Notes: generated by a model not told the origin, from the sequence alone. Shown: positions 6,836-44,097, counted from the first letter of the stretch. The stretch: DNA of 63,473 nucleotides from Candidatus Woesearchaeota archaeon (GCA_021734865.1 JAIPIC010000002.1:1-63473), one strand, 5' to 3'. Numbers and translations are program-made.

Positions 6836-9004
6836 ATGATAATGGATAATTTCAAAGATAAGAAGATTTGCATTACATCAGCACTTCCATATGCGAATGG
6901 AAGCATACACATTGGACACCTAGTTGAATACATTCAGACGGATGTTTTCGTCAGATTTCTCAAATTGACAGGACATGACGTCATCTACTGCTGTGCAGAC
7001 GATACACACGGCACACCTATTGAATTCAATGCCCAAAAACAAGGCATAAAACCAGAAGAACTCATCGGTAAAATTTTCAAAGAACACACGCAAGATTTCA
7101 ATGATTTCTTAATCACATTTGATAATTATTATTCAACAAATTCTCTCGAGAATAAGAAATTTAGCGAGCATATCTTCAACGAAGCAAAGAAAAAAGGGTA
7201 TATTTACCAAAAAGATATTGAATTAACATACTGTGAATCATGCAAACGCTTCCTGCCTGACAGGTTTGTCAAAGGAAAATGTCCAAAGTGTGATGCACCA
7301 GATCAATATGGGGATGTATGTGAAAAATGTAACTCAACCTATGAGACAATAGAGCTCGTTGAACCTTATTGCACAATATGCAAAGCAACTCCTATAAGAA
7401 AAGAATCAAAACATTATTTCTTCAAACTGAGCGAATTCTCTGAAAAACTTAAAGACTGGCTGAATAAAAACGAGCTGCTCCAAAAGGAAGTTAAGAATTT
7501 TGTAATGAATTGGATAGACGAAGGCCTCAAAGATTGGTGCGTCAGCAGAGATGGTCCATATTTTGGATTTAAAATTCCTGGAGAAGAAAACAAATATTTT
7601 TACGTGTGGCTGGATGCACCTATTGGATACATCGCAAGCCTTGATAATTTCCTCGCAAAAAAAGGAGGCAAAGCAGAAGACTATTGGAAAAGCCCAGACA
7701 GCTACATCATGCATTTCATAGGAAAAGACATAATATACTTTCATTTCCTGTTCTGGCCAGCCTTATTGATGGCATCTGATTTCAACCTTCCACAGAACCT
7801 TCGGGTTCACGGGTTCCTTACAGTAAACAAAGAAAAAATGTCAAAATCACGTGGGACATTTATTACAGCCAGGAAATATCTTGATACCCTTGACCCAGAG
7901 TACCTTCGTTTCTATTTCACCGGAAATCTATCCTCTCATCTTACAGATTTAGATATGGAAGTGGGGGATTTCAAGACACGCATCAACAGCGAACTGATCG
8001 CAAATATAATCAATCTAATGTATCGGACAATATCATTTGCTAACAGGAATCTTGATTCAAAGATAGGCAGACTGACTGAAGAGTCAAAGGAAGTCATATC
8101 CCAAGTGCATGAACAGCTTGAAAAGTATAAACAGCAAATGCTGACATATGAATTTAGAGAAGCAATAAAGACTATTCTACATGCCAGTTCTATTGGGAAT
8201 AAGTATTTTCAGGATAATGAACCATGGAAACTTGATGATATAGACAAAAAAAGAGAGATCATCACAGCATGCACAAATATAGTCAAGGATATCGCAATCG
8301 CACTTTGGCCAGTACTACCCAAAACCTCAGATTCAGTGCTGAAATTGTTATACCAAAAATCAAAAACCAGCGAATCAGATCAGGATGACGGATCATCAGC
8401 AATTCCAAGCTGGGACAAAATATATGACCCAATTGAAGAAATAACCCTTGGAGAGATAAAACCTCTTCTACGAAAGATAGACAAGATTGAAATATTTGAC
8501 TCACAAGACTCAGCCAAGAAGGAAACGACTCCACCCGAAGGTTTTGGCCTTCTGAATCTTAAGGTAGCCCAGATAATAGAAGCAAAACCGCACCCGGATG
8601 CAGACAAACTGATTATCTTACAACTTGACTTGGGAACAGAAAAAAGACAGATTGTCGCTGGATTACGTGAACATGTTGACATAAATGCACTTCCAGGCAA
8701 AAAAATCGTTATTGTATCCAACCTTGAGCCTGCAAAACTGAGGGGTGAAATCTCAAATGGCATGTTATTGGCAGCTGAAGAAGATGGTAATCTATCTCTT
8801 CTTGACCCCGGAGAAGCAGAATCGGGTGATCAGGTAAAAATTGATGGCATAGAACCAAACAAAGAAAATATAACATTCAAACAGTTCCTAAAAGTCAAAC
8901 TATCCATATCAGAGGAGAAAGTTTATTATAAGGGTAGTCCATTAAAAACTAATGTCGGACCGGTTACAGCACAGAATAAAACGGAAAAGGCCACAATCAG
9001 GTAA
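6836..9004 (+). CDS. metG: methionyl-tRNA synthetase with C-terminal Trbp111/EMAP-like tRNA-binding domain
   Basis: HIGH motif (YANGSIHIGHL), Zn knuckles (CESC, CPKCD, CEKC, CTIC), KMSKS, and C-terminal KVAQIIEAKPHPDADKL...VSNLEPAKLRG. Confidence 0.95.
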   Translation: MIMDNFKDKKICITSALPYANGSIHIGHLVEYIQTDVFVRFLKLTGHDVIYCCADDTHGTPIEFNAQKQGIKPEELIGKIFKEHTQDFNDFLITFDNYYSTNSLENKKFSEHIFNEAKKKGYIYQKDIELTYCESCKRFLPDRFVKGKCPKCDAPDQYGDVCEKCNSTYETIELVEPYCTICKATPIRKESKHYFFKLSEFSEKLKDWLNKNELLQKEVKNFVMNWIDEGLKDWCVSRDGPYFGFKIPGEENKYFYVWLDAPIGYIASLDNFLAKKGGKAEDYWKSPDSYIMHFIGKDIIYFHFLFWPALLMASDFNLPQNLRVHGFLTVNKEKMSKSRGTFITARKYLDTLDPEYLRFYFTGNLSSHLTDLDMEVGDFKTRINSELIANIINLMYRTISFANRNLDSKIGRLTEESKEVISQVHEQLEKYKQQMLTYEFREAIKTILHASSIGNKYFQDNEPWKLDDIDKKREIITACTNIVKDIAIALWPVLPKTSDSVLKLLYQKSKTSESDQDDGSSAIPSWDKIYDPIEEITLGEIKPLLRKIDKIEIFDSQDSAKKETTPPEGFGLLNLKVAQIIEAKPHPDADKLIILQLDLGTEKRQIVAGLREHVDINALPGKKIVIVSNLEPAKLRGEISNGMLLAAEEDGNLSLLDPGEAESGDQVKIDGIEPNKENITFKQFLKVKLSISEEKVYYKGSPLKTNVGPVTAQNKTEKATIR

Positions 9005-9040: not shown

Positions 9041-10573
9041 TTGAAAAAAAGAGTGATACTCATATTCTTAACCTTGTTTTTAGTTATCCCTCTCTTTTAT
9101 TCATATGATTCTATTGACGATCATTCTCTTGGCTATATTGACGATGATTCAAATTCTGGAGTTGACCAAAATGATAACTCTCCTACAAAAGAATACGATA
9201 TGGGTGGTGCACCGATAAATGCATTTTTGGACCAGAGGATAAGAAACATCAATCTGAACAATTTCAATGATCTTGAAAAGATGTATGAAGACATCCACAA
9301 GCTTAGCGAGTTATTCTATTCAGCTTCCGGCCTTTTCTATATGTACGGTGAAGAAAAAGCAGCTCTAATGTATCTTAATATAACAAAGAAAATATACCAG
9401 AGCACAGGAAAGGAAAACATCGTGACCCTCTTGGATTTCTATGAAAGATCTATTCGCTCAGGCAAATACAATCAGGTCTACAAGTTTGACAAAACTCTTT
9501 TTACGATAAATCCAGATTTTAGGGATGCAGTGATAACTTATGCAAAAAAAGGAGACCCTCTTATTATTGATAATCTGGTAGTTGAGATACACAACAGCAC
9601 ATCAGCAACAATCCAGATAGACAAAAGACCCGGAATATCTGGTCTATTGATTCCTTCAGATCATATCCCAAAGGTACAAACCCCACAAACCATATTTATA
9701 ACCCAGCAGCCCGAAATATCCGGACTGCTAAGATATTTCTATGGTAACTATTCAATCGTTCCTCTGCACAGCGCATACCATCAAACACCAGTATTTGAAA
9801 GTACTGATCAGAATATGAAGATTGATCTGCTTTTTGATTCACCTGAAGTTACAATAAATAATTTTGAAATAATAAAAAATCCTAAACTCTTAGTGGAAGA
9901 CCTTGAATTTTATGCATATGAACCAAACGAGGTACTCTTCCTCTCAAGCCCACAGATTCCTACTAATTACAATAGCATCGACCTACCAGCAAAGATTGTC
10001 GGTAGAAAGATGATTTCTATACAATTTAAAACAAAAAACAAAGGCCTTGAGGAAGTACAGTCTACAATCCTTTATTTTGCCATTGTCGCTTCCCTATTCT
10101 TTTTTATCCTCTTCAATTACCTTGGTGTCACATTCACAAGGCACCATTATCATAAGTCATATTTCCTTTTGGTTGTCTCAGTTATCCTCCCGTTCTACCT
10201 TTTTTTTGCACTAAAATGGCTCTTTGACCTTGTTGATTACGATACAATAGACACCCGATATACAATCTTCTGCTCTATCATTATCGCAGTGACCATGATA
10301 GCATCCTCATTTGGTTATTTCCTTGGTACAAAAGTCCTAAAGCTTGATCACCTGAAACATCAAAGAAAAATCCTAAAGGAAGAATTAAATAAACTAAAGC
10401 TCAAACAGATTGATGAGATTGTCAAATTCATCGGTTTTGAAAGTAACCAGAAACTGGATAAGGCAAAAAAAATTGAAGAGATTATCAAGCTCAAAGAAAG
10501 GGAACTCAAGGAGACTATTGCTTTCATAGAAGAAGACATAATTGATTATAAGATCAATTTCCATAAAAAATGA
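9041..10573 (+). CDS. orphan envelope protein: signal peptide, ~320-aa ectodomain, three TM helices, K/E-rich coiled-coil tail
   Basis: TTG start with GAGGT upstream. N-terminal VILIFLTLFLVIPLF. TM helices around aa 340-440. C-terminal KILKEELNKLKLKQ...KERELKE. Confidence 0.6.
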   Translation: MKKRVILIFLTLFLVIPLFYSYDSIDDHSLGYIDDDSNSGVDQNDNSPTKEYDMGGAPINAFLDQRIRNINLNNFNDLEKMYEDIHKLSELFYSASGLFYMYGEEKAALMYLNITKKIYQSTGKENIVTLLDFYERSIRSGKYNQVYKFDKTLFTINPDFRDAVITYAKKGDPLIIDNLVVEIHNSTSATIQIDKRPGISGLLIPSDHIPKVQTPQTIFITQQPEISGLLRYFYGNYSIVPLHSAYHQTPVFESTDQNMKIDLLFDSPEVTINNFEIIKNPKLLVEDLEFYAYEPNEVLFLSSPQIPTNYNSIDLPAKIVGRKMISIQFKTKNKGLEEVQSTILYFAIVASLFFFILFNYLGVTFTRHHYHKSYFLLVVSVILPFYLFFALKWLFDLVDYDTIDTRYTIFCSIIIAVTMIASSFGYFLGTKVLKLDHLKHQRKILKEELNKLKLKQIDEIVKFIGFESNQKLDKAKKIEEIIKLKERELKETIAFIEEDIIDYKINFHKK

Positions 10574-13500
10574 AATATAATATATCACCAAATCTATTGA
10601 TGAAATCGATAATTATTATGTTCTTAGTAATATTGATTCCTATTGCAATAGCACATGATATATCTGACTCTAAAACGACAACCTTTATTAAAAAAGAATT
10701 TGCTTCAAGAGGGCTATTATCAAGGATGGCTCCAATACATGAAGGAGCCCTATCTGACGAAGATTCTTCCACAACACCTCTACTCCATACAATAAAGGAT
10801 GCAGTAGTCTATGGTCAGGATATGATTGAGTCTTACACAAGGCTTAATGATTCTATAAATGTGGAATTGCTTGTTAAAATTGATAATGATTGTGACATCT
10901 CACCAGATCAGTTGAAGGTTGGTGCAGTTGATTTCTATGAGTGCGTCAATGAATCTGGCTGTTACCACCGATGTAAATTTCAGTCCAGCCAGGTTATGTT
11001 GAGCCCACAGACTCAAACTGTAAATGTATTGGTCTATGATGATGACGGTATTGAGTTATCCTTCAGCAAGCCATCGATATATTTTTATGTGGATTATTTG
11101 CCTCCGGAAGTATCAAGCATCACTTTTGATCCCCCCTACAGCGCATCAGGGTCATCAGTCCTTATTGGGGCACAGATCAATGAATATTCTTACTCAACCT
11201 CAAGTTCATCATACTGTGTTGGTGTAAAATCATATGATATTTACAAGGATTCTTCCAAATTGAAGAGCGTCAATGTTAATGGAAGAACTGGCCTATGCCA
11301 GATGTCAGTAGAACATAACATAACCACGAGCGAACTACAGCTCACAGATGGATATAACAACATCTGCATTGTGGCTTATGACACATTTGGACAAAACTCC
11401 ACAAAACAATGCGCAAATTTCATGTATGACAGCAAAGCACCTGTCTTGTCGCTTAGCAATATTGACATTGAAGCATCTGACGGAAGTGACATATCATATT
11501 ACAAAATAGGGGATGACTTACGACTAAGTTTTGAGATAAATGTTGATGAGAATATCTCCGGAATCAAATCAGGAAGCATAAAAGTGAATCTCTCTGAGTT
11601 TGGTCAGACTGAACTCTACTCTCCATCATCCTGTGGAACAGATACATATTGTGTCAATGATGTGACCTTTCCAAATAACTCATCCTCCGTAAACAATAAA
11701 GTATACATAGAAGCAGAGGATAATGCAGGCAATAGCATTATTCAGTCCTTCTCGATAACAAGAAGTCTTACAGTAGACGAGAACGCACCAACAATAACAG
11801 CTTTTATTATAAAAGATAATGATGGAACCGAACTTGATCAACGCATAATACCAGGAGACTTCTATGCAGATGTAATAATCCAGATCAAAGAAAATGAATC
11901 AGGTCTTGACGAATCCAGTGTTATGGGAGATTTTAGCAATTTCTTGATTCAGGGCAGCGTTGACGTACAAGATCCATTCTCACAGGCTGGGCAAACTCAG
12001 TCCGGCACAGCTACCTGCCAGTATACAGATGATTATTACGTATGTCTCTTCGATAATGTATACATTGACCTTAACCAGTCAGGGTCCAAGTCATTTACAG
12101 TAAATGCGACAGACAATTCAGGAAACACAAAAACACAGACTTTTTCATACGCTTTTGAAGTAGATGCAACAGCTCCAGAAGTTAGTGCATATCGAACAGA
12201 TTACTCTCAAGACAACATGTACTGGCTGGGTAAAAACAACAACACAATTTATGTGGATTTAATCGAAGCAGGCATAGGATTGTACAATAAGACAATTTAT
12301 CTCGACGGTTCAAACATAAATTCCAATAACAAGATTGAACCTTATAATTGTACTGGAGGATGGATTTGTGAATTCCGTGGAGTTGATGTTACAAGTGCAT
12401 CAGACGGTTCAAACATATCTTTTGGACTCAATATGGACTCAGCTGACGATCTGGGAAATGAGATCACTGAATCTTATCCAGGATATTTCATAATAGACCT
12501 AACTGCTCCATCTTTCATTAACATATCACAAAATTCATCTACAGGCTTCTGCCCGACTTATCTGGATAACCTTTTCATCACTGCATATGTTACTGAAAGC
12601 GGCACAGAAGAAGTGACAATTTCAGTTGATGCAGATGAAATCTCAACATATACAAATCCTGTTTTCTCAAACAGCTGTGAGCTTGAAGATAATGAAACAA
12701 ATCTTTGGAAATGCGAACTTACAATAACTGACTTAAACACTTACTACACTGATGCAACGCTAGACGTAGTACTCAGTGATGGTGTTGGCAATAATCATAC
12801 TGAGTCAATTGATGTTGAGGTATGTAAACATTCATCTGATACTCCTGTTTGTGTTACAATCTCCTACGACACACCTGAGACACTTCCAGAGAAAGTTGAC
12901 CTTCTGGCCATGTCAACGACTTCTGTTCCATTATTTATTCATCTTAACTTAAATGTCTGCGCTGATGGCATTATTTATACTAAATCAATCGATTGTTCCG
13001 ATACAGGTAACCTTGACAGTACATATGCCCCATATTTGATAGCTGACTCTACAGATGACCCTTATCTTTCAATGCGCCTGAAAGGGACAGAGATCGTTGA
13101 TGAAGATGACGATGACAAGATGGACATCAAGTGTAATCTCTCGATGAAGATGCGAGTTGGCTCAACAGTGTATGAAGATCTGGAGCAAGAGTCCATTTCA
13201 CTCAATGTTGAGACTTACAACAATCCATTGGGAAGCATTGGAGATGAAGCTAATGAGACCATTCAGGAACTTGAAGACAAAATTGATGGCCTGGAAACTG
13301 AAATAAAGGATATGGAGGACGACCTTGAGACATGGACTACCATCTGCCAGATTGTAGACTTAATATTGAAGATCGTCAGTCTCATACAGGCAGTCTCAAG
13401 CATACTTACTGGTATTGGGTGTGCGATTGCAGCATTTCCTCCATTGGCAGGAGTTGGTGAAGCAATTGCCAAAGCAGGCTGCTGGGTCTCAAGCATATTT

Positions 13501-14514
13501 AACTTCTTAGGAGGGTCGTGGTATACAGATAGCCCAATGCTTCAGAAGGCCATTGGTATTATAGGTTTCCTAATGAAACTTCAATGCGCAATGGTATCCT
13601 GTAAAATCTGTACAACATCCTACTGGCAGGGTGCATTCTTTTCAGCAGTAGGAATGGCAGCTAATTTTGTCGCTACAGGATATACTCCTCCATCTGAAAT
13701 ATCTAGAACGGAAGGAAAATGGGTTCGTGATGATGATAAATCTGCAGAATCGGGTTCTACTATGTATCGTTATGAGGGTGACATACAATATGTGGAAGAT
13801 GCAAATTTATATGATTCATATTCTAACATTAGGGCACATAGTGGTCCAATGGGTTGGACCGAAAAGGATGAGTCTTGGTCTGAGAAAATTGCGTCTGATT
13901 GGTCAAGTGGAATAACCGGAGGTTGGCGATCTGACCCTTCAATGGCAAACCATCCAGATAATCTTGACTACAGTGCAGACTCTGTTGATGATGGATATAT
14001 AATGAATCCATACAAGTCCATCCACTTTGCAAAAGGATGCTACTGCAAGCCGGGCGAAATATATAATAAGAGGAAGATGAGACAGCTCTATTGCATCCAG
14101 AAGGACTGCATCCAGCAGAATGCCCTGGTTGGGCTACCTACTTATGCCTGCGACCTACAGATGAAAGAGAACTGGTGCTTATATGTTGACAGCGCAGAAT
14201 ACTTAAAGTATGGGGCAGACAATATCTTCCAAGAAGTCATGGACAATTTAGTAGATATAATATTTAGTGATATGCTAGCAGCAGCACTGGCAATTGTAGG
14301 TATTGCATGTCAGGTCTTCCAACTAATACTGGGACAATCCCTTGCTACATGTAATGCAGACCATGCTCCGGTTTGTTCATCGAAATGGTGGGTAATCGGA
14401 TGCGGGCTTGTCAGCGCAGCTCAAGGAATTATGAGCCTCATGTCACTTATGAACAACGGCTTTGATACAGATTCGTATAACAGCGCCTTACAGGGGACGG
14501 ATTACTGCTCATGA
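10570..14514 (+). CDS. giant (1314 aa) surface protein: Ig-like repeats, coiled coil, Cys-rich hydrophobic C-terminal module
   Basis: ATGA overlap with the upstream gene. Signal/anchor KSIIIMFLVILIPIAIA. Repeated domain-end motifs DTFGQNS, AEDNAGNS, ATDNSGNT, ADDLGNE, SDGVGNN. Many N-x-S/T sequons. ETIQELEDKIDGLETEIKDMEDDLE is followed by Gly/Ala-rich hydrophobic segments. Confidence 0.7.
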   Translation: MKYNISPNLLMKSIIIMFLVILIPIAIAHDISDSKTTTFIKKEFASRGLLSRMAPIHEGALSDEDSSTTPLLHTIKDAVVYGQDMIESYTRLNDSINVELLVKIDNDCDISPDQLKVGAVDFYECVNESGCYHRCKFQSSQVMLSPQTQTVNVLVYDDDGIELSFSKPSIYFYVDYLPPEVSSITFDPPYSASGSSVLIGAQINEYSYSTSSSSYCVGVKSYDIYKDSSKLKSVNVNGRTGLCQMSVEHNITTSELQLTDGYNNICIVAYDTFGQNSTKQCANFMYDSKAPVLSLSNIDIEASDGSDISYYKIGDDLRLSFEINVDENISGIKSGSIKVNLSEFGQTELYSPSSCGTDTYCVNDVTFPNNSSSVNNKVYIEAEDNAGNSIIQSFSITRSLTVDENAPTITAFIIKDNDGTELDQRIIPGDFYADVIIQIKENESGLDESSVMGDFSNFLIQGSVDVQDPFSQAGQTQSGTATCQYTDDYYVCLFDNVYIDLNQSGSKSFTVNATDNSGNTKTQTFSYAFEVDATAPEVSAYRTDYSQDNMYWLGKNNNTIYVDLIEAGIGLYNKTIYLDGSNINSNNKIEPYNCTGGWICEFRGVDVTSASDGSNISFGLNMDSADDLGNEITESYPGYFIIDLTAPSFINISQNSSTGFCPTYLDNLFITAYVTESGTEEVTISVDADEISTYTNPVFSNSCELEDNETNLWKCELTITDLNTYYTDATLDVVLSDGVGNNHTESIDVEVCKHSSDTPVCVTISYDTPETLPEKVDLLAMSTTSVPLFIHLNLNVCADGIIYTKSIDCSDTGNLDSTYAPYLIADSTDDPYLSMRLKGTEIVDEDDDDKMDIKCNLSMKMRVGSTVYEDLEQESISLNVETYNNPLGSIGDEANETIQELEDKIDGLETEIKDMEDDLETWTTICQIVDLILKIVSLIQAVSSILTGIGCAIAAFPPLAGVGEAIAKAGCWVSSIFNFLGGSWYTDSPMLQKAIGIIGFLMKLQCAMVSCKICTTSYWQGAFFSAVGMAANFVATGYTPPSEISRTEGKWVRDDDKSAESGSTMYRYEGDIQYVEDANLYDSYSNIRAHSGPMGWTEKDESWSEKIASDWSSGITGGWRSDPSMANHPDNLDYSADSVDDGYIMNPYKSIHFAKGCYCKPGEIYNKRKMRQLYCIQKDCIQQNALVGLPTYACDLQMKENWCLYVDSAEYLKYGADNIFQEVMDNLVDIIFSDMLAAALAIVGIACQVFQLILGQSLATCNADHAPVCSSKWWVIGCGLVSAAQGIMSLMSLMNNGFDTDSYNSALQGTDYCS

Positions 14515-15110
14515 AAAAGACAATTATTGTATGGATTACAGCACTTATGATTTTGGCACAAATAGCCACAGCAGGGATATTTGGAGGCGACGACAGCGAC
14601 TCACCAGTTGGCTTTGATTGGTATGAAGTAGAGGACTGGGAGCGCACATACTGCCAGGGATATGCAGGAACAGATACTTCCCAATCATATTATGGCAGCA
14701 CACAGACTGCAACAGAGTACCCTTGGAGTGTTGTTCTGGTTACTATTCAAGCTGAAAAAGAAAATTACACTATTGACGGGAACGATACATTCCTCTATAA
14801 GTTATCTTATTATATCAGACCTGGAAATGGAAGCATGGATTTCGCAGTCAGAGCAGTCTGCTCAGATTGCACAGATCAATACAAACAGATACAGGGACAG
14901 ACGACTATTTCCAGCACATCAGGAATGTCTGGATATGAAGCATGGTATACTAATGAAACATACACAAAAGCCCAAATTAAATATGTGGGTTCCGGTACAG
15001 GTGTCTCAAGTACGTTTACCGTGCCTTTCGTTGATGAAGATTATGAGTATGATGACGCCTGCACAGGCTGTGGAAGCTCTGGCGGTGCTGGCACATGGGA
15101 TGATTGGTGA
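14511..15110 (+). CDS. small secreted Cys-containing protein, function unknown
   Basis: ATGA overlap with the upstream gene. Sec-type signal KKTIIVWITALMILAQIATAG. Cys pairs CSDC and CTGC. Confidence 0.6.
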   Translation: MKKTIIVWITALMILAQIATAGIFGGDDSDSPVGFDWYEVEDWERTYCQGYAGTDTSQSYYGSTQTATEYPWSVVLVTIQAEKENYTIDGNDTFLYKLSYYIRPGNGSMDFAVRAVCSDCTDQYKQIQGQTTISSTSGMSGYEAWYTNETYTKAQIKYVGSGTGVSSTFTVPFVDEDYEYDDACTGCGSSGGAGTWDDW

Positions 15111-16126
15111 ATATGATAAAATATCTGGCACTTGGACTTGGACTTGCTGTTTTTGCTTATCAATGGTATAAGGTTAAAAAAACAGAGTTCTTGATATATA
15201 CTGCAATATTTTTCTATGCCGGATTTGCAGCCTTATCTGCGATTACAATGCGTTTTTTTACTATTGATATCCAATATCTTGGAGTAGCTGCCCTTCTGAT
15301 ATCAATATCTGCATTATATACTGTTTATCCATTGGAAAAATATATTACCAAGTTAAAGAAATACATTATGGTACGACCAACTTGGGCATACATGAAGAGA
15401 TGTGTATTATCAGACCTTTCATTGATAATCATAATTGCTCTGATAATTGTTGCAACAGGACTGCTTGTCAATAATTCCCCTCAGAAAATCAGTGAACTGT
15501 CCAAAGAACTTTTGATCATCGGTTCCCAGGCAACATCCTCAAGTCAAACTGCAGGTTTATCCGACCGTATGCAAAATGTTGACTCAAGCTTAATGGGCTT
15601 GGTTTTATTTTATCTTGGAATATTTTTTGTAGCAATTAATCTGATAATTATTGCATTCTATTCAACAAGATCATTTATATATTCTCAATTATTGGGTAAT
15701 AAACCAAGCTGGAAGGATGGACTCAAATTAACAGTTAGAGGTTATGTATCAATATTGCTTCTAATTGTTTTTTCTGTTATTATAGCATTGATAATAAAGG
15801 ATTGGATGACAGTGGTCATTCTGGCAATAGCTGTGATACTTTTTGTATTTTTGTCCTTCCATATGAGCTCGATTAATTATGAAAAAAAGAAGATTGTAGC
15901 TGTTATTAAAATCACTTTTAAAGTGTTAAAAGACAAAATCCTATACTCCCTTGGTGCACTGTCATTGATACTATTCATAGTAAACCTTTACCTCCTCGCC
16001 CTGAGCAGAATTATGCTCATGTCCCAGTTCATCATGAATATAATGATAATAATAACGCTCATTATCACATACATTTACATAATATGGGTAAGATTAGTGT
16101 ACTTTAACATATCAACTACAAAATGA
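15104..16126 (+). CDS. polytopic (about 8 TM) membrane protein, function unknown
   Basis: 340-aa hydrophobic ORF. The start is ambiguous (TTG 15104, GTG 15107 or ATG 15113) and abuts or overlaps the upstream stop at 15108-15110. Confidence 0.6.
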   Translation: MVNMIKYLALGLGLAVFAYQWYKVKKTEFLIYTAIFFYAGFAALSAITMRFFTIDIQYLGVAALLISISALYTVYPLEKYITKLKKYIMVRPTWAYMKRCVLSDLSLIIIIALIIVATGLLVNNSPQKISELSKELLIIGSQATSSSQTAGLSDRMQNVDSSLMGLVLFYLGIFFVAINLIIIAFYSTRSFIYSQLLGNKPSWKDGLKLTVRGYVSILLLIVFSVIIALIIKDWMTVVILAIAVILFVFLSFHMSSINYEKKKIVAVIKITFKVLKDKILYSLGALSLILFIVNLYLLALSRIMLMSQFIMNIMIIITLIITYIYIIWVRLVYFNISTTK

Positions 16127-18408
16127 AAAAAAGAGGCCAAATTACAGCGATAATGATCGCATTACTTGTGTTAGCCATATCAGTGTCCTTAGCATATTAC
16201 TTCTATTACACCCAGGTCCGGACAGGAAGTGAGGTGGGCGTAGACATAACTTCAAGTGCTGGAGAGACTATAACAATTGGAAATACATATGTGCAAAACT
16301 GCCTTGACAATGCACTCGTCGACATTGTCTCAAAATTAGGTGAAAGAGGTGGATATGTATCTCTTGACGACAATGAACTTGGAATCAGTTTTGATCTCGA
16401 CAGCATGAAACCGACGGAATCCGAGGCTGTTGCTTTTACTACAGGGGGAGATTACTTTATACCATACTGGTGGTTCATGCGAAAACCAAATGATTGTCTG
16501 GCATGTACCATGGATTCAAAAGCACCAAGCAAGACATTAGTAATAGAGCAGATAGATAAATACGTCAAACAGGAATTTCTTGATTGCTTACAAGATTTCA
16601 AAGCAATAAAAGACATGGGATATGAAGTTGAGACTGACTTAGATCCACAGCTCGTCGTAGAGTTTGGAGCAGAAGATACACTCGTCAAGCTTTCCATGCC
16701 CTTCTCCTTAAAAAAGCAGGATGTTGAGAAAGTGGATTTTGATAGATTTGAATCAAGATATAATGTTCCACTTTCAAAATTCTTCACAATTGCATCTACA
16801 ATAACAGAATTCGAAAAAACAGTCATGGCCTTTGATAAAATCCTAATTAACATAATCTCTTTATATGGAAAACCAAAATACGATGCAATTCCACCAATGG
16901 CATATTCAGATAACGAGCCTTTGTATGTTACATGGAGCAAAACCTTGGTTGAAAGACAGGTTCGTGAAGTCATGATGTCAACAATACCTTTCATATCAAT
17001 AAATGGATCAGCTAATGAATTTGTCATACCTTCGTCTGACCCGTATTCAGCAGGTGTTTACAATACTTTTGTATGGGACATCTTTGATCCTGATTATGAT
17101 ATCAGTGCCTATGAGATCTATTTCCATTATCTTGGCTGGCCATTTCACTTTGATATAACACCAAGGAACGGGGATACAATTAAACCAGACACTGTTATCA
17201 ATACCTTTTTTATGAATGTCAGACCACCTACATATTACAATAGGTATAATTTTTTCTATGATCTGTCAGTGCCGGTTGTTGTTGAGATCAGGAACAACAA
17301 AGTAGCCAACAAAAAAGGATATTCATTCTTCTTTGCACTTGAGGCTAATATCCGTGACAATATGGACATGTACAGGTTCAATGATGGAACAGGTTCATAT
17401 GGCTCGATGGATTATTCTAATGTGAATGTTACATTGGATTACATAATCAGTAACGGAACCAGAATGGTATCTACTTCCAACACCCAGTCCTCAAGAAAAC
17501 TGTTCTGCAACACTAACCAGCGATTATCAGCAAATGTTACAGTCAATGTAATTGATGGTTATACAGGTCAGCCCCTCAATAATACACTCCTCCAGTATTC
17601 ATGCGGAGACCATGCGATCTGTCCCCAGGGCTATGCTCATTATGACCGAACTACAATGAAATCCTCATATGAAGCCAAGTTCCCTGTATGCTTAGGAGGC
17701 GCTCTATATGCAAGTGCTCCTGGCTATGAAACAGCAGTCACAAATCTTGACACTAACTTTGAGGATGAAAAGACCGTTGAGATTGGTCTGTACGAAAAAA
17801 GGAACGTATCTGTTGACTTCAAAGTATATCAGGCAACTGACTCAAATATATTATCTGGTATGGGTGGCACATTAAACACAGATGAAATGGCTATAATCAG
17901 CCTCCAAAAGATTAGAAATGCATCAAATTTCTTTGAAGATCATGTGAGTTATAAGCTAATTGCATTTGGAAATGGCACGACCGGTCTGGACAACATCGAT
18001 CTCGTTCCAGGCAAATATACTGTCTCTGGACAAATATTAGATATGGCTGGATACACAATACAGGCACACTGCAAACGCTATTGTTCTTCCTATGATAGTG
18101 ATGGGGATTGCGAATCCTATTCCACAACACCTGATCAAAACATAGATATATCTCCTGCTCCAATGGGGGGGATTGATATAAATTCCACTGATCCATTGAT
18201 TATCCTTCCACAAGATCTCAGATTTGCTAATAATCTTGAAATAAGATTAGTGCGTGTCAGACAGTCGACATGTGTTGATGAAGCAAACATGACCAGCACG
18301 GACAGCTGCCAGGCTCCTGGCGGAATTTGTATTGGGATGAGCGAACTCACAAGATGGATGCAGTTGAATTCTGATAATTATGTGGAGTTAATGCCAAGAT
18401 TAGGATAA
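16123..18408 (+). CDS. 761-aa extracellular protein with class III (type IV pilin-like) N-terminus
   Basis: ATGA overlap with the upstream gene. MKKRG|QITAIMIALLVLAISVSLAYYFY resembles archaeal prepilin signals (K/R-G then Q-I plus a hydrophobic helix). The rest is beta-rich with sequons and a carboxypeptidase-regulatory-like stretch (NVTVNVIDGYTGQPL). Confidence 0.6.
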   Translation: MKKRGQITAIMIALLVLAISVSLAYYFYYTQVRTGSEVGVDITSSAGETITIGNTYVQNCLDNALVDIVSKLGERGGYVSLDDNELGISFDLDSMKPTESEAVAFTTGGDYFIPYWWFMRKPNDCLACTMDSKAPSKTLVIEQIDKYVKQEFLDCLQDFKAIKDMGYEVETDLDPQLVVEFGAEDTLVKLSMPFSLKKQDVEKVDFDRFESRYNVPLSKFFTIASTITEFEKTVMAFDKILINIISLYGKPKYDAIPPMAYSDNEPLYVTWSKTLVERQVREVMMSTIPFISINGSANEFVIPSSDPYSAGVYNTFVWDIFDPDYDISAYEIYFHYLGWPFHFDITPRNGDTIKPDTVINTFFMNVRPPTYYNRYNFFYDLSVPVVVEIRNNKVANKKGYSFFFALEANIRDNMDMYRFNDGTGSYGSMDYSNVNVTLDYIISNGTRMVSTSNTQSSRKLFCNTNQRLSANVTVNVIDGYTGQPLNNTLLQYSCGDHAICPQGYAHYDRTTMKSSYEAKFPVCLGGALYASAPGYETAVTNLDTNFEDEKTVEIGLYEKRNVSVDFKVYQATDSNILSGMGGTLNTDEMAIISLQKIRNASNFFEDHVSYKLIAFGNGTTGLDNIDLVPGKYTVSGQILDMAGYTIQAHCKRYCSSYDSDGDCESYSTTPDQNIDISPAPMGGIDINSTDPLIILPQDLRFANNLEIRLVRVRQSTCVDEANMTSTDSCQAPGGICIGMSELTRWMQLNSDNYVELMPRLG

Positions 18409-18435: not shown

Positions 18436-19779
18436 TTAAGAACTATCTCCTTCCTGTTCTGTGTTTTTGATATGGATACAGGAATCCTTAAGCAGACTAT
18501 TTGTTATCTTCTCACAGGCATCATAGTCATGGTTCCTTAGCGCTGACGCCATATAACAACTGTTTCGGTTGAATTCATCACTGATTTCATCGCATAATTC
18601 ACTTTTCTCGGAGTTAAGGGCAATTTCTCTGAAACAATTGTCTCTTGTAGAATCTTTAGATATTAATTTGCATGATTCTGGATCATTGTTGATCTTTGCA
18701 GTTCTGTCCACGCAGTTATCTCTCGTATAATTCTTCAAAATTTTTGTGCAGATCTTAGTGTTATTTGTAATCTTCGCCAATTCAAAATAGCAGAAATCCT
18801 GCATTAAAGCATCTGTTAGTTGAGTACAGACCTTAGCTGCATCGCTGAGATCTTTTGAACTCTTATCTTCGAGAATTTTGATTATTTCATTATTTGTTAG
18901 ATCATCATACTCACCAGTAGGTTCTACTGGTGGTTCCACTGGTGGCTCTACTGGCGGTTCGACGGGCGGTTCAACGGGTGGCTTTACAGGTGGTTCTACC
19001 GGAGGTTCCACTGGTGGTTTCACCTCTGTAGTATTACTGGAAACCAAAGTGAATTCCTCACTTTCCGCAATGGCAACATCCTCTGCCCCATACTTGATTT
19101 TTCCACGCACAAAATACTTCCCAGGAATAAAATCAATGTTTGTCTTGATAGAAACAGTATTTGTCAGTCTGGTTTCTATAGCAGCCTGTTGGCTCTTTCG
19201 TGATACTATCTTGCCTTTCTCATCAATAATATCAAAAAAAAATCTTAAATCAAATCGATTATCAGAACCCATATTAAATACAGAATAGGAAAACACAATA
19301 TCATCTCCGACCTTAAATTCAGTAGTATCAAGATTTATCTCAAAGTCAAGCAGTTCAGAAACATCAATAGAGCCTCCAGGTCTGAAGAATAATAGTCCCA
19401 GTGTTATTAATGCTGCTAAGCATATTCCTCCAATAACCAACAGTACTTTATTTGACACATCAAACATATGGTGATGAGTAACTTCCACATGTTGAGGGAA
19501 CATGGACATCCCAGAATCTATTGCATTCGGCTGATAACCATAGGACAACAGATAGTTCTTCAGTTGCCCCCTATCAATACCCTTGTCCAGCTGTGCAGAT
19601 ATGAATTGTTCAAGCTGTGGATTTGAATAATAACTTATTTGAATGGCTTTATTGATATCTTCCTGGCTGTAACCTTTTGTAAGAAGGAATTTCTGTATTG
19701 AGGGATAATCATAGCCCTGACTAGCAAGCTGCCTGATATAATTAGTTAATTCCCTCAAACCCATAGATAATTTAATCAA
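18436..19779 (-). CDS. bitopic surface protein: duplicated N-terminal helical motif, TM, Ig-like domain, (V-E/K-P-P)x9 stalk, Cys-repeat head
   Basis: N-terminal GYDYPSIQKFLLTKGYSQEDINKAI and DRGQLKNYLLSYGYQPNAIDSGM. TM helix VLLVIGGICLAALITLGLLFF. C-terminal repeats of the type TRDNCVDRTA, STRDNCFREIA, NRNSCYMASA, LKDSCIHI. Confidence 0.6.
   Translation of the reverse strand: MIKLSMGLRELTNYIRQLASQGYDYPSIQKFLLTKGYSQEDINKAIQISYYSNPQLEQFISAQLDKGIDRGQLKNYLLSYGYQPNAIDSGMSMFPQHVEVTHHHMFDVSNKVLLVIGGICLAALITLGLLFFRPGGSIDVSELLDFEINLDTTEFKVGDDIVFSYSVFNMGSDNRFDLRFFFDIIDEKGKIVSRKSQQAAIETRLTNTVSIKTNIDFIPGKYFVRGKIKYGAEDVAIAESEEFTLVSSNTTEVKPPVEPPVEPPVKPPVEPPVEPPVEPPVEPPVEPTGEYDDLTNNEIIKILEDKSSKDLSDAAKVCTQLTDALMQDFCYFELAKITNNTKICTKILKNYTRDNCVDRTAKINNDPESCKLISKDSTRDNCFREIALNSEKSELCDEISDEFNRNSCYMASALRNHDYDACEKITNSLLKDSCIHIKNTEQEGDSS
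18916..19023 (-). repeat. 12-nt x9 coding repeat (VEPP/VKPP) with scrambled synonymous sites
   Basis: Read on the minus strand: gtg aaa cca cca / gtg gaa cct ccg / gta gaa cca cct / gta aag cca ccc / gtt gaa ccg ccc / gtc gaa ccg cca / gta gag cca cca / gtg gaa cca cca / gta gaa cct act. Confidence 0.85.
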
Positions 19780-20365: not shown

Positions 20366-21751
20366 ATGGATGATCAAGAAAAAATCAAGAATTTAAGTAA
20401 AATGGCAGAAGCACTTGCTGCCAGCGGGCTTGCATCAAATATTAAGGAAGCTGAAAAACTATCAGAATCTCTTCTCGAGACATTGAAAACAGGACCAGAA
20501 GAAACTGATGAACCACAAAAGACAGTGGCTGAACAGATGGCAGAAGATATAATCTCTAATGATGTGGTCCAAGAAGTTGAGTCTGCCTCCAATCATGTCT
20601 CACAAGATGCTTCAGATGCTTCAGATGCTTCAGATGCTTCAGATGCTTCAGATGCTTCAGATGCTTCAGATGCTTCAGATGCTTCAGATGCTTCAGATGC
20701 TTCAGATGCTTCAGATGCTTCAGAAGAATCATCTAATGATATCAGCGATACTGACTCACCGGCAGAAGCCATATTGAATACTCAAGAGGATGATGGACAA
20801 TCTGAGAATATTGAAGATGCTGATAATCAGACTGACACGGAAAAGGATGATGTGCATGAAGATACAACCAACGCCAGTGAAACTGATGGAAATGTATCAG
20901 CAGATGACAAAACAGACATTGATAACCAAGAACCCATAGCTGATGACCTTGTTGACTCTGCTAATGCTGACATAAAATCTCAGGAGCCGATAGACGACGT
21001 GCAAGACCTGACGCAAGACGATGAAGAGCTTGAATCAACTGAAGCTCAATCGGAGGCAGCCACTCCTTATGCTGGACCCGAAGTAGTTGAAGAACATCCT
21101 CAAGAAGAAGATGAAGATCTTGAATCAATTGAAGCTCAATCGGAAGCAGCTGTTCCTGAATCTCAACCTGAAGTAGTTGAGGAACAGTCTCCGCAAGATG
21201 ATGAAGGTCTTGAATCAATTGAAAATCAATCGGAAGCAGCCATTCCCGATGCTCAACCTGTAGTCGAGGAACAGCAAGCGGACAGTGTGGAAGATATCGA
21301 AACTGTACCAGAAGGCTCTGAAGTTGAAAAAGGAATGGATTCTACACAAAATGACATTCCAAATGAGACTAAAGAGGAACCAATTGACGATTGTGATGGT
21401 AGTAGCGCCTCAAATAACGATCCTGATGGGGACTCTGACGATGATAATACTTCAGTTGATGAAATCAGTCCAAATGATGTCGTCGAGGATGAAAAGGAGC
21501 CAATAAAAGAATCTGAAGAAGAAAACTATGATATTGAAGAAAATGATGACAAAAAAGATGACAATAATAGTATCATGACATCAGATGACAAAGCTTCTGA
21601 GGTAGAAGAGAATACGGACACAGATATGCCAGGAGATAATAAGGACAGTGTCGACGGCAAATCGGCTGAAAACAAATCCCAAAAGCCGATGTCAGAAGAG
21701 GAAAAATATCAGCATGAGCATTCAACATTCTGGTCTGAATACAAGCGATGA
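20366..21751 (+). CDS. 461-aa polyacidic, low-complexity protein with nested tandem repeats
   Basis: AGGTGA upstream of the ATG. D/E/S-rich throughout, with (DAS)x13 and three 30-aa repeats. No TM helix or signal peptide seen. Confidence 0.6.
   Translation: MDDQEKIKNLSKMAEALAASGLASNIKEAEKLSESLLETLKTGPEETDEPQKTVAEQMAEDIISNDVVQEVESASNHVSQDASDASDASDASDASDASDASDASDASDASDASDASDASEESSNDISDTDSPAEAILNTQEDDGQSENIEDADNQTDTEKDDVHEDTTNASETDGNVSADDKTDIDNQEPIADDLVDSANADIKSQEPIDDVQDLTQDDEELESTEAQSEAATPYAGPEVVEEHPQEEDEDLESIEAQSEAAVPESQPEVVEEQSPQDDEGLESIENQSEAAIPDAQPVVEEQQADSVEDIETVPEGSEVEKGMDSTQNDIPNETKEEPIDDCDGSSASNNDPDGDSDDDNTSVDEISPNDVVEDEKEPIKESEEENYDIEENDDKKDDNNSIMTSDDKASEVEENTDTDMPGDNKDSVDGKSAENKSQKPMSEEEKYQHEHSTFWSEYKR
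20606..20722 (+). repeat. perfect 9-bp tandem repeat GATGCTTCA x13 (encodes DAS x13)
   Basis: I counted thirteen identical, in-frame units. Confidence 0.95.
21020..21289 (+). repeat. 90-bp tandem repeat x3 (30-aa units D-E-x-LESxEAQSEAA..PEVVEE)
   Basis: Unit starts GATGAAGAG at 21020, GATGAAGAT at 21110 and GATGAAGGT at 21200. The period is exactly 90 and the copies are diverged. Confidence 0.8.
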
Positions 21752-21846: not shown

Positions 21847-22671
21847 ATGAAAGAGAGAGTTACTTTAACACTGAGTGATCAGATTCTCAGGCGTGTGGAC
21901 GGTCTGATTGATGGGTATCAGATCAAGAACAGGAGTCATGCTGTTGAACTTATGTTATTGAAAGCCTTAGGTTCAAATGTACCAACAAAAGCAATAATTC
22001 TCGCAGGAGGGCTTGGGACAAATATAAACAAGAACAGTGAAATCCCAAAAGCACTTATTCCATTGAAAGGAAGAACTGTGACAGAATTTGTATTCGATCA
22101 GCTCAAAAAATATGGAATAAAAGAAGTAATAATGGCTGTAGGCCATATGAAAGACAAGATTAAGGAATACTTTGGTGATGGTCATCAATTTGGTATGAAA
22201 ATATTGTATCTCGAAGAGGATGATAATTTAGGAACAGCAGGTCCTCTGAAACTGGGTAAACATCTTCTTGATGAACCATTCATCGTCACTTGCTCTGATA
22301 TAGTATTTGATATAGACATAGAAGAGATGTTTAGACTACACAAGGCCAAGAATGCTTTGGCTACCGTCGCACTGACAACTATTGATGATCCTTACAATTT
22401 TGGTGTGGCAAATCTTTCAGGTAGCAATATACTTGAGTTTATCGAGAAGCCTCCGAAGGATAGCAGTATGACCAAAATGATAAGTGCTGGATTCTATATA
22501 ATTGAGCCTATTGTGCTTGATCTGATACCCAAAGGCCATACGACCCTAGAAAAAGACATATTCCCAAAACTGGCAGCAGATAAAAAACTGATTGGTTACC
22601 CATTCAGTGGGTATTGGTTTGATACATCTATACCTGAGTATTACAAAGCAGCAAAAGAGCTACTTGAATGA
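21847..22671 (+). CDS. ribbon-helix-helix (CopG-like) domain fused to a sugar-phosphate nucleotidyltransferase-like domain
   Basis: N-terminus KERVTLTLSDQILRRVDGLIDGYQIKNRSHAVELMLLKAL shows the strand-helix-helix pattern. It is followed by AIILAGGLGTNINKNSEIPKALIPL and the rest of a GT-A NTP-transferase fold. Confidence 0.7.
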   Translation: MKERVTLTLSDQILRRVDGLIDGYQIKNRSHAVELMLLKALGSNVPTKAIILAGGLGTNINKNSEIPKALIPLKGRTVTEFVFDQLKKYGIKEVIMAVGHMKDKIKEYFGDGHQFGMKILYLEEDDNLGTAGPLKLGKHLLDEPFIVTCSDIVFDIDIEEMFRLHKAKNALATVALTTIDDPYNFGVANLSGSNILEFIEKPPKDSSMTKMISAGFYIIEPIVLDLIPKGHTTLEKDIFPKLAADKKLIGYPFSGYWFDTSIPEYYKAAKELLE

Positions 22672-22678
22672 GGGGGAA

Positions 22679-24079
22679 ATGCAGGAAATTAATCTTAAGT
22701 CAATAGACCATAACGTATCTATTAGGGAAGGATTCTTCGAGGATTTGAACATAGATGAACCTGCACATTGTGTTCTTATAGCTACAAAACCTGATATTAT
22801 CAAGCAGGCGCCATTGATCCTTGAGATGAGGAAAAGAGGTGTCCCGCACTTTGTATGTCATACAGGACAGCACTACGACTGGAATCTATCTGGCGGTCTT
22901 GAACAGGAATTTGATATTAAACCAGACATTAATCTCAACATCGACGGTCCCATGTATGAAAAACATTCTCAGTTGATATACCGGTTTGGAGAAGTCCTGT
23001 CCAGAATTAAGAAAAAGGGAGGCGAAGTGATTCCATATCCTCACGGAGATACGCTGACTGCAGTAGCAGGTGGAATCGGGTCATATATGAATGAATACGC
23101 AGTTGCTCATATTGAAGCAGGACTGAGGACTCTGACTCCTCCTTTAGATACTCTTAATTCCCTATTAAAAATTGACTTACATAAGTCTGATTTTGACATT
23201 ATGGATTATTATAACAAGCTCCAGACAGAACAATTTGAATATGGATCAAATGAACCGTATCCCGAGCAGTTTGATACAAGATGCGCAGCAGCAACAGCTG
23301 GGTTGCATTTCGCTCCTACAGAACTTAACAGAACAAATCTGCTTAACGAGGGATATCCAGAAGATAGGATACACATTGTCGGAAACACCGTCGTAGATGC
23401 ATTGAGATTTGCAGAGGACAGAGTTAATAAGTCAAAAATATTTGAGAAATATCCTGCATTGGAAGACGGCGAGTTTGTCAGATTCTGTATCCACAGACGG
23501 GAAAACGTATCAAATGAACAGCGATTTAAGTCAATTTATAGTGCTATGAAACAACGAATCACAGCCGGAAAAAATACTCTGCTTATTAGCCTCGGAGCTA
23601 CAGAAATGGCATTCAGATCATTTGGACTTAAAGAAGAGATCCAAAAACTCGATGAACAGTTCGAGAATTTCATATATTCTCCTGTCTGGCCATTCTATAC
23701 TGACGTTATAGCAGCCACAAAAAAGTGCAGACTCGTCGCGACAGATTCTGGAAGCATGCAGGAAGAATGCAACATGCTTGGTGTACCATGCGCAACATTG
23801 CGTTTTAATTCTGACCGACCAGAATCGATCATGGCGGGTTCAAATATTCTGGCACCACCTATCAATGGAGAGATTGTAAACCATATAATCTCTCAGGCAG
23901 AAGATAATGATGACCTCAATAGAGAATTGTCGTCCAAAAAGAACCTATATGGAGAAAACGTATCTAGCAAGGTCTTGGACATTGTAACTGGTCTAAAAGA
24001 ACCATTGTTCAGGTTTGACCATACAAGACTCAAATTTGACCAGAACAATTTCTGGAAAGAGAAGCGAGCAAACTGGTGA
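22679..24079 (+). CDS. wecB: UDP-N-acetylglucosamine 2-epimerase (non-hydrolysing type) with an internal insertion
   Basis: GGGGG RBS then ATG 22679 (the ORF-track start at 22592 overlaps the upstream gene). HTGQHYD, HIEAGLRT, PYPEQ, HFAPT, VGNTVVD, TDSGSMQEE. About 40 extra aa follow GLRT. Confidence 0.85.
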   Translation: MQEINLKSIDHNVSIREGFFEDLNIDEPAHCVLIATKPDIIKQAPLILEMRKRGVPHFVCHTGQHYDWNLSGGLEQEFDIKPDINLNIDGPMYEKHSQLIYRFGEVLSRIKKKGGEVIPYPHGDTLTAVAGGIGSYMNEYAVAHIEAGLRTLTPPLDTLNSLLKIDLHKSDFDIMDYYNKLQTEQFEYGSNEPYPEQFDTRCAAATAGLHFAPTELNRTNLLNEGYPEDRIHIVGNTVVDALRFAEDRVNKSKIFEKYPALEDGEFVRFCIHRRENVSNEQRFKSIYSAMKQRITAGKNTLLISLGATEMAFRSFGLKEEIQKLDEQFENFIYSPVWPFYTDVIAATKKCRLVATDSGSMQEECNMLGVPCATLRFNSDRPESIMAGSNILAPPINGEIVNHIISQAEDNDDLNRELSSKKNLYGENVSSKVLDIVTGLKEPLFRFDHTRLKFDQNNFWKEKRANW

Positions 24080-24083
24080 GATA

Positions 24084-43853: not shown

Positions 43854-43965
43854 TTTTTTCTTTTTTTAACTATTTTTTATTTATATTATTCGCAGATAGG
43901 CAAATAATCGAAATATTTATATCAAACATCAATTATTGGCAATAAAAAAGTTTTTGGTGATGCAA

Positions 43966-44097
43966 ATGGCTGACGAAAAGATTTGCTCTTTTTGTGGATA
44001 TACCTTGGATGAAGATGAAGAGTGCTGTTCAGAATGCGGTAACAACATGGAAGATTATGATGAAGCTACATTAATGGCAGCGGATGAAGATTTTTAA
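43966..44097 (+). CDS. 43-aa acidic zinc-ribbon mini-protein (not in the ORF track)
   Basis: MADEKICSFCGYTLDEDEECCSECGNNMEDYDEATLMAADEDF carries a CxxC...CxxC pattern. Translated by hand. Confidence 0.4.
   Translation: MADEKICSFCGYTLDEDEECCSECGNNMEDYDEATLMAADEDF

Follow-up and report, generated by a model that had tools for sequence, protein, structure and literature searches.

Type IV pilins can be modular and carry bulky domains for adhesion (PMC8179133), and archaeal pilus systems of the Epd type, found also in DPANN archaea, include proteins that combine a class III signal with lectin-type domains (bioRxiv 10.64898/2026.04.22.720090). A putative archaeal secretion or membrane-remodelling system comprising arCOG01314, MoxR, DUF58 and vWA proteins was described by Makarova et al. 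2015 (PMC5898192), and the archaeal 'dark matter' surveys of Makarova and colleagues cover DPANN-specific secreted proteins and diverged pilins (PMC6393860). Here we report the analysis of a group of genes for surface proteins located at positions 9041–18408 of a 63,473-nt stretch from Candidatus Woesearchaeota archaeon (GCA_021734865.1 JAIPIC010000002.1:1-63473). This whole stretch is referred to as the window, and all its coordinates are counted along the full length. Few uncultivated archaea are as widespread as Woesearchaeota and their relatives, and we know of nothing at the molecular level about their envelope and cell contact.

An earlier reading of this DNA (the original prediction) had proposed that five orphan envelope genes form a unit serving host attachment or an intercellular bridge. 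We found that the module is real and conserved, but that its membership differs: the conserved unit is a core of two genes, G5 and G2, with G3, G4 and the opposite-strand gene G6m as partners, typically located behind the methionyl-tRNA synthetase gene metG. Literature searches found no published description of this gene set, as the original prediction had supposed, and the module is best filed as undescribed kin of archaeal surface and pilin-like adhesin modules, with a function that we infer.

Gene organization of the module

The genes of the region and those flanking it are as follows.

6836–9004, + strand: metG, methionyl-tRNA synthetase with a C-terminal tRNA_bind domain (from its translation)
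9041–10573, + strand: G1, open reading frame (ORF) of 510 aa
10570–14514, + strand: G2, ORF of 1314 aa
14511–15110, + strand: G3, ORF of 199 aa
15104–16126, + strand: G4, longest ORF 340 aa; probable product of about 337 aa at 15113–16126, from alignment to the closest relative
16123–18408, + strand: G5, ORF of 761 aa
18436–19779, − strand: G6m, ORF of 447 aa, convergent with G5 across a 27-nt gap

The five same-strand ORFs, G1 to G5, follow one another in a row with the sizes and positions originally given, and direct reading of the sequence shows an ATGA start/stop overlap at each of the positions 10570, 14511 and 16123. The G3/G4 junction had been described as overlapping or abutting and can indeed be read either way: the longest G4 ORF begins with TTG at 15104 and overlaps the G3 stop codon (15108–15110), while an ATG at 15113 sits 2 nt after that stop. 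Because the G4 of the closest relative (52% identity) aligns from residue 4 of the window G4, the ATG at 15113 is probably the true start. The 36-nt gap between metG and G1 contains a GAGGT ribosome-binding site and no obvious TATA box, and metG may be co-transcribed with the module. The window is part of an archaeal chromosome, with genes for eIF2-alpha, a thermosome subunit, NOG1 and many further housekeeping proteins; no tRNA or Rfam match was found in it.

Kyte-Doolittle scans reproduced the topologies claimed for the five products, all of which are predicted to be secreted or membrane-embedded. The isoelectric points (pI) of G2, G3 and G5 are 4.0–4.6, and these proteins have 1.3–2.0 N-glycosylation sequons per 100 aa, versus 0.39 in ten cytosolic proteins of the window; the acidic pI and the high sequon density fit archaeal extracellular glycoproteins. 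Searches of all six proteins against Pfam, NCBIfam and PHROGs, and searches of PDB sequences with single proteins and family profiles, gave nothing significant except a marginal Big_3_3 match in G2, in agreement with the view that no characterised family is represented. A regex scan of the six proteins found no LPXTG, PGF/PEF-CTERM or lipobox motif, and anchoring by sortase, archaeosortase or lipobox was therefore rejected.

Conservation and synteny of the module

Homology of G2, G3, G5 and G6m across related loci was confirmed by BLAST. The relatives of G5 are 21–29% identical to it, with one at 76%, and the named ones are Candidatus Woesearchaeota. An exhaustive HMMER search with the C-terminal 435 residues of G2 gave 341 cluster representatives at E ≤ 1e-3, of which 158 also pass E ≤ 1e-10. 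Almost all of the matches listed are proteins of 1000–1500 aa or fragments, with the matching domain at the extreme C-terminus and usually ending in G.DYC, and the full-length ones inspected have Sec signal peptides. A word-index search with full-length G2 returned P0016 only, and one with the alignment of the G2 C-terminal domain returned no match, probably because low-complexity words swamped a query for which HMMER had given 341; G5 alone as a query had no match in the GTDB genomes. Thus the description of the genes as orphans holds for G1, which has no detectable relative, and fails for G2 to G5, which have hundreds of homologues.

Gene order was examined by scanning one genome per GTDB species with a degenerate DNA pattern back-translated from C.PG...N..K..Q..C....C. 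The scan gave at least 120 loci, as 8-kb tiles in which the match is not centred, and the tile counts given here rest on the 120 listed. A true G2 C-terminal domain was identified by a hidden Markov model (HMM) in 115 of them; the remaining five agree with the small number of chance matches estimated for the pattern, and five tiles have bacterial titles and no archaeal-type gene. The record titles are mostly Ca. Woesearchaeota, Nanoarchaeia, Nanoarchaeota and Nanobdellota, with one Aenigmatarchaeota. The complete chromosome OY970338.1 has the module at about 88–96 kb.

A G5 homologue was found on the same strand as G2 in 81 of the 115 tiles, always co-directional, and two gene orders were seen: G5 followed by G2 in 52 tiles, and G2-(G3)-G4-G5, the order of the window, in about 29. 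The spacing of the G5-G2 pairs lies between −50 and +100 nt in 47 of the 52, with an exact 4-nt overlap in 18. In the related loci both orders retain the same partners. The metG gene stands directly upstream and co-directional in the window, in L001 and in 12 listed tiles (L016, L052, L057, L069, L080, L083, L089, L093, L097, L101, L107 and L112), which include both gene orders; L009 has metG on the same strand some 1.2 kb upstream, and the P0008 contig has it beside a second, unverified pair of 252- and 717-aa genes. The linkage to metG was thus seen in at least 16 genomes. The co-directional pairing, the two orders with the same partners and the position of metG together define the conserved unit as the G5-G2 core with G3, G4 and G6m. 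Synteny in related archaeal genomes, which the original prediction had named as a test, is thus strongly conserved, but it does not follow the boundaries first drawn: G1 is lineage-specific, and the convergent gene at 18436–19779, left out of the earlier set, belongs to the conserved one. The organization of individual related loci is given below.

L001 (Woesearchaeota GCA_016928155.1): metG, genes of 1018, 176 and 279 aa, a 743-aa G5 homologue and a convergent 452-aa gene
L003, L008 and the P0008 contig: order G5 then G2
L007: two module clusters within 22 kb
L009: metG, then G2-G3-G5, two inserted genes, a G4-like gene and G6m
L131, the closest relative: G3 (77% identity), G4 (52%) and G5 (76%), with the ATGA overlap retained

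The two genes inserted between G5 and the G4-like gene of L009 (17513–19181; 312 and 245 aa) look like a small mobile or toxin-antitoxin-like insertion. In L003, L008 and the P0008 contig, G2 is followed by a further large Sec-secreted protein of 679–1044 aa that belongs to no family and has no similarity to the G1 of the window; it may be an extra component specific to the G5-G2 order.

No match to the G2 Cys motif was found among IMG/VR viral contigs. This result and the housekeeping chromosomal context led us to reject an origin from a mobile element or virus. The tight tie of a housekeeping aminoacyl-tRNA synthetase gene to a surface operon may mean that they are transcribed together.

About 36 tiles (L011, L014, L015, L025 and others) come from third-party metagenome-assembled genomes (MAGs) titled 'uncultured Methanosarcinales'. 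The metG products of L080 and L093 are 44% identical to that of the window, against 27–38% for most Woesearchaeota-labelled ones and 50% for a short Woesearchaeota chromosome fragment; because they are nearer to the window's than most Woesearchaeota-labelled ones, the Methanosarcinales label of these MAGs looks wrong. Archaeal module genes were also seen on contigs binned as Bacteroidales (L070) and Binatia (L109).

G5 carries a class III signal and a large, predicted extracellular part

The N-terminus of G5 reads MKKRG followed by QITAIMIALLVLAISVSLA, with a single N-terminal hydrophobic helix after MKKRGQ, and the family alignment (A1) gives M-K..-[KR]-[GAS]-Q-[ILV]-T-[ILV]-F-I-I-I-G at this place. 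Among 66 full-length G5 homologues from the tiles, 52 have [KR][GASN], three residues and then at least 14 hydrophobic residues; 49 of these 52 have Q at +1 and 48 have T or S at +3. Q at +1 is typical of euryarchaeal pilins processed by EppA. The N-terminus of G5 thus has the leader and the shape predicted for a class III (prepilin) signal, and the prepilin-like character originally noticed in one protein proves to be kept family-wide. Conservation of the motif extends far past the needs of a plain membrane anchor, which counts for the class III reading. Among the window ORFs this motif is found on G5 only; G1, G2 and G3 carry Sec-type signals. As expected for a pilin-like module, L003 encodes a stand-alone protein of 299 aa that corresponds to the N-terminal ~230 residues of G5 only.

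An AlphaFold2 (AF2) model of G5 (predicted local distance difference test, pLDDT, 75; predicted template-modelling score, pTM, 0.50) shows the N-terminal helix, an alpha/beta region built from helix-plus-sheet units at about residues 45–450, three to four transthyretin/CnaB-like beta-sandwiches at about 470–720 and a C-terminal helix. Foldseek against PDB gave local matches to the beta-sandwiches only (CnaB/transthyretin-like domains of Gram-positive pilus adhesins, carboxypeptidase regulatory domains and SlaB; global template-modelling score, TM-score, about 0.1) and no structural match for the N-terminal alpha/beta domain, and the G5 family profile had no match among PDB sequences. Four Cys residues are invariant in G5, and the invariant positions are occupied mostly by Cys, Gly, Pro, Trp and Tyr, as one would expect of a structural protein more than of an enzyme. 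An enzymatic role was considered and rejected, as the alignment has no invariant His, Ser, Glu or Lys.

G2 combines a variable Ig array with a conserved Cys-rich domain

G2 has a Sec signal peptide, 39 Cys residues and, on the Kyte-Doolittle scale, hydrophobic stretches at residues 924–963 and 1226–1293. About six tandem immunoglobulin (Ig)-like domains of ~110 aa each were recognised, with D..aP.(I/V/L) linkers at residues 175, 287, 403, 532 and 643 and with a D..GN motif and Cys residues in each domain. The assignment to Big_3_3 (PF13750), at residues 254–392, is marginal (E 2.1e-6; 27.9 bits against a gathering cut-off of 27). The G2 family profile had weak matches among PDB sequences, to Ig domains of streptococcal surface proteins and to the Deinococcus HPI surface-layer (S-layer) protein (E 0.049).

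Members of the family vary in the N-terminal Ig array and share a conserved C-terminal domain. The conserved module (aa 880–1314; nt 13207–14511) opens with an NNPLG hinge and comprises a coiled coil, an all-alpha domain, a variable disordered insert (aa ~1038–1140) and the terminal G.DYC. Its AF2 model, built on an alignment of 56 sequences, is all-alpha (pLDDT 70.7, pTM 0.66) and consists, in order, of a 65-residue helix whose acidic amphipathic coiled-coil half passes into a hydrophobic half, three more helices, the length-variable disordered insert and a helical bundle at module residues 272–424. Among 128 members, 10 Cys residues are conserved at ≥88% and 13 at ≥60%; an intermolecular disulfide between G2 and G3, suggested by an odd Cys count, was dropped since the count shifts with the threshold (10 versus 13). 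The best Foldseek matches of the model, with E 6 in PDB and E 0.3 in BFVD, point to no relative in either database.

The original prediction took the hydrophobic tail of G2 for a putative membrane-active module. We found no support for this, and the helices are not kept as membrane spans across the family: the family-mean hydropathy of the C-terminal domain is at most 1.4 over 19 residues, the helices are 9–16% charged, and a Kyte-Doolittle value of 1.6 or more is reached by the first hydrophobic helix in 46% of members and by the other helices in 0–25%. From sequence and model, the tail is better described as a disulfide-stapled helical domain, of a fold without known relative, that would be at most peripherally membrane-associated. 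As its helices are not conserved transmembrane segments, G2 would need a partner for attachment. Pfam and Foldseek searches revealed no pore-former, translocon or fusogen likeness in the G2 C-terminal module or in G5; the nearest Pfam likenesses, at G2 residues 895–955, are weak ones to SseC (E 0.0095; 16 bits against a cut-off of 30.2) and XhlA (E 0.22).

Partner genes G3, G4 and G6m, and the variable gene G1

G3 is a small, acidic (pI 4.05), Sec-secreted protein with a signal peptide, 5 Cys residues and 2.0 sequons per 100 aa; one Cys is conserved in the family, in the motif WY.VE.WE...C..(Y/W)GG. Its homologues always stand after G2 in the window-type gene order, as in L001, L007, L009, L010 and 6–9 GTDB tiles, depending on the method. 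Identity to the G3 of L131 was calculated over the 82 C-terminal residues present there.

G4 is a polytopic protein with 6–8 hydrophobic segments and a pI of 9.8, encoded directly before G5 with the ATGA overlap. It is fast-evolving, with 52% identity to its syntenic counterpart in the closest relative against 76% for G5. The window G4 has no BLAST similarity to its positional counterparts in related loci. An hhalign comparison of the window G4 and its near relative with a 36-member G4-like family drawn from the related loci gave a probability of 97% (E 3e-11), a score of the kind that is inflated for membrane proteins.

In G6m, a cytoplasmic N-terminus with three-helix repeats weakly resembling RecX is followed by one transmembrane helix (105–138), a CARDB/MG2-like Ig domain, a (PPVE)n linker and Cys-rich helical repeats; these assignments rest on weak Pfam hints. 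A 12-nt tandem repeat at 18920–19019 (8.3 copies) encodes the linker and creates a spurious 136-aa (GGST)n ORF on the + strand at 18878–19288. Homologues of G6m adjoin G5 on the opposite strand in L001, L005 and L009, and are on the strand opposite to G5 in 9 of the 11 tiles having one, in both gene orders.

G1 consists of a Sec-type signal peptide, an ectodomain of ~310 aa, three hydrophobic helices (338–430) and a Lys/Glu-rich helical C-terminal tail, as judged by hydropathy. It has no family match in Pfam, NCBIfam or PHROGs, and neither the 131 loci nor the JGI metagenome contigs yielded a homologue. These comparisons identify G1 as a lineage-specific insertion between metG and G2, outside the conserved module.

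Possible functions of the module

We tentatively favour a reading of the module as a fibre or adhesin complex at the cell surface, with the Sec-secreted Ig array of G2 docked on the pilin-like anchor G5. Precedents for it are the modular pilins (PMC8179133) and the class III-signal proteins with binding domains of Epd-type pilus systems (bioRxiv 10.64898/2026.04.22.720090). The class III signal peptide of G5 would be cut after Gly5 (between Gly5 and Gln6) by a prepilin peptidase encoded elsewhere, and the N-terminal helix would keep G5 membrane-bound, or fixed to a stub resembling a type IV filament, either at its base or at its tip, with the alpha/beta domain and the beta-sandwich stalk displayed outside the cell. 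G2, exported by Sec and having no conserved membrane anchor of its own, would dock through its disulfide-stapled all-alpha C-terminal domain on a membrane complex of G5, G3 and G4, while its six variable Ig-like domains would project as a glycosylated fibre contacting surfaces or partner cells. G4 may serve as a membrane platform or assembly factor, and G6m, with its helical repeats in the cytoplasm and its Ig and Cys-rich domain outside, may be a bitopic accessory or signalling subunit. G1 would be a species-specific addition.

Several results weigh against this proposal. G5 matched no family at E ≤ 1 in Pfam or NCBIfam, including the curated class III signal and pilin HMMs; no gene for a prepilin peptidase, a type IV pilus ATPase or a platform protein was found among the scanned ORFs of the 63-kb window; no T2SSE homologue was found in the 120 GTDB tiles, and a single locus, L010, has a T2SSE ATPase, 3 kb upstream; and no small minor pilins accompany G5. 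The hydrophobic stretches of the window G2 are strong (Kyte-Doolittle values up to 2.3), and in this species G2 might anchor itself. Finally, the linkage to metG suggests constitutive, housekeeping-like expression, which fits an envelope scaffold equally well.

Such a scaffold is the main rival reading, possible if on balance unlikely. It would be a constitutive two-component structure resembling an S-layer, with G5 as the membrane stalk in a role like that of SlaB, G2 as the outer canopy, and G3 and G4 serving assembly or anchoring. In both gene orders metG immediately precedes the module on the same strand, with gaps of some tens of nt; this position suggests constitutive co-expression and vertical inheritance, and speaks for a constitutive envelope component no less than for a contact device. 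The module is also widespread, in at least 115 species-level genomes and 341 cluster representatives, and the viral contigs lack its motif; the products are large, acidic and rich in sequons; the beta-sandwich stalk of G5 has a local Foldseek match to SlaB (8qox_B, E 1e-4); the G2 profile touches the Deinococcus HPI protein, if weakly; and no S-layer gene is recognisable in the rest of the window. However, none of the proteins matched an S-layer family HMM or had a PGF/PEF C-terminal motif, and the TM-scores to SlaB are just 0.11–0.17. The high variability of the Ig array is more adhesin-like, as is the presence of paralogous clusters in several genomes (L007, L008, the P0008 contig, and two tiles each from three MAGs), and a class III signal would be unusual for an S-layer anchor.

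We consider it improbable that the module is the host-attachment or bridge machine originally proposed, in which the Cys-rich tail of G2 would be pore-forming or fusogenic, G4 a platform and G5 a pilin-like piston. All parts are indeed envelope proteins encoded by translationally coupled genes, the G2 module opens with a 65-residue helix running from coiled coil to hydrophobic within a novel bundle, the SseC and XhlA similarities fall at its start, and DPANN archaea are, according to PMC11329633, generally thought to be host-dependent. But the SseC and XhlA matches lie far under their cut-offs and on the coiled coil, the model resembles no pore-former, translocon or fusogen in PDB or BFVD, and the hydrophobicity of the helices is not conserved. 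The 10–13 conserved Cys residues argue for a rigid, disulfide-locked domain, not one that refolds into a membrane, and no ATPase or other energy source was found in or near the module, in the window and the tiles. None of the checks made here supports a membrane-active bridge machine, and host attachment or an intercellular bridge, together with an episymbiotic lifestyle for this archaeon, is pure conjecture. Just as improbable is a related scheme, a new DPANN cell-contact apparatus in which a type IV machine encoded elsewhere would drive G5 to present or thrust G2 at a host and the Cys-rich domain would engage or breach the host envelope.

Least probable of all is a conserved neighbourhood without joint function, in which independent surface proteins are held together by inherited order near metG: the variation of G1, the two gene orders and the detection of G3 and G4 in a minority of tiles (counts kept low by the 8-kb tiles and by fast evolution, as in G4) speak for it, but G5 and G2 stay adjacent and co-directional through an order-changing rearrangement, 18 of the 52 pairs in the G5-G2 order have exact 4-nt overlaps, G6m follows G5 in both orders, and paralogous copies away from metG keep the same partners.

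As a lineage-wide set of four to five co-inherited surface genes, with two domains that have no structural relatives and a giant protein bearing a prepilin signal, the module is well defined. The Cys motif of the G2 C-terminal domain, the KRGQIT N-terminus of G5 and the metG linkage provide markers for metatranscriptomics, proteomics and cryo-electron tomography. An S-layer role, if true, would fill a gap in archaeal cell biology, and a cell-contact role would give a first molecular handle on how Woesearchaeota attach to their partners or exchange with them. If the adhesin presented by a pilin-like anchor is correct, it would parallel the episymbiosis driven by type IV pili that has reportedly been shown for Saccharibacteria in recent work.

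Other features of the window and related loci

Downstream of the module, at 20366–21751 (+ strand), lies a gene for an extremely acidic protein of 461 aa with repeats at 20605–20724 and 21014–21264: 13 perfect copies of a 9-nt unit encoding (DAS)n, and a 90-nt unit present in 2.8 copies. Overlapping ORFs at 21847–26182 (+ strand), 3.4 kb downstream of the module, encode two NTP-transferases, a UDP-GlcNAc 2-epimerase and a phosphoglucomutase/phosphomannomutase; this sugar-nucleotide cluster could supply glycans for the sequon-rich surface proteins. A probable large surface protein of 796 aa, with weak NPCBM_assoc and WxL-interacting-protein domains, is encoded at 33687–36077 (− strand) and is unrelated to the module by BLAST. 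Outside the window, the elongation factor 2 gene at 1–1690 of L007, a Woesearchaeota MAG, contains an intein (Intein_splicing and LAGLIDADG_3 domains).

Comparison with known systems

The window also contains, at 42069–48592 (+ strand), genes for a 594-aa PKD/cadherin-like surface protein, a MoxR AAA+ ATPase (44174), a DUF58 protein (45247), a vWA/BatA protein (46107) and an uncharacterised 513-aa ORF (47051), an arrangement that resembles the MoxR/vWA neighbourhood of PMC5898192. Like that arCOG01314/MoxR system, the module belongs to archaeal 'dark matter' and is predicted to form an envelope complex with several components, which are membrane and Ig-domain proteins, but it does not itself contain the MoxR ATPase, DUF58 or vWA/BatA proteins. 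Membership in that system was rejected, as its genes lie 26 kb off in a separate operon (44174–47048) and are absent from the related loci.

With SlaA/SlaB of Sulfolobales the module shares the plan of two large co-transcribed secreted proteins, one a membrane-anchored beta-sandwich protein and the other a large outer protein with a coiled coil. It differs in having no sequence or global fold similarity to them, in an anchor that is N-terminal and of class III instead of a C-terminal transmembrane helix, in the extra partners G3, G4 and G6m, and in its paralogous clusters.

The tandem Ig/CnaB-like stalks of G2 and G5 recall bacterial Ig-repeat adhesins of the Big_3_3/Big_13 type and the pilus tip adhesins SpaC, RrgA and GBS52, and G2 also has the variable repeats and the conserved attachment module of Ig-repeat adhesins. 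Unlike them, it lacks LPXTG, PGF-CTERM and lipobox motifs, and attachment would be through the novel Cys-rich all-alpha domain.

G5 itself is alike to modular type IV pilins and class III proteins such as PilB and PilC of Streptococcus sanguinis and the accessory proteins with lectin-like domains of the archaeal Epd-type 'system 1'; the class III-signal sugar-binding proteins of the Sulfolobus bindosome are also comparable. At 640–890 aa the G5 proteins are far larger than known pilins and match no pilin or class III HMM, their loci have no linked ATPase, platform or peptidase genes, and their pairing with a Sec-exported Ig-array protein of 1000–1500 aa has no counterpart in known pilus loci. 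What G5 shares with class III proteins is a short basic leader ending in G, A or S, the Q at +1 and a hydrophobic helix of ~20 residues, and with modular pilins a bulky extracellular part behind the N-terminal helix and a short paralogue consisting of the N-terminal part only.

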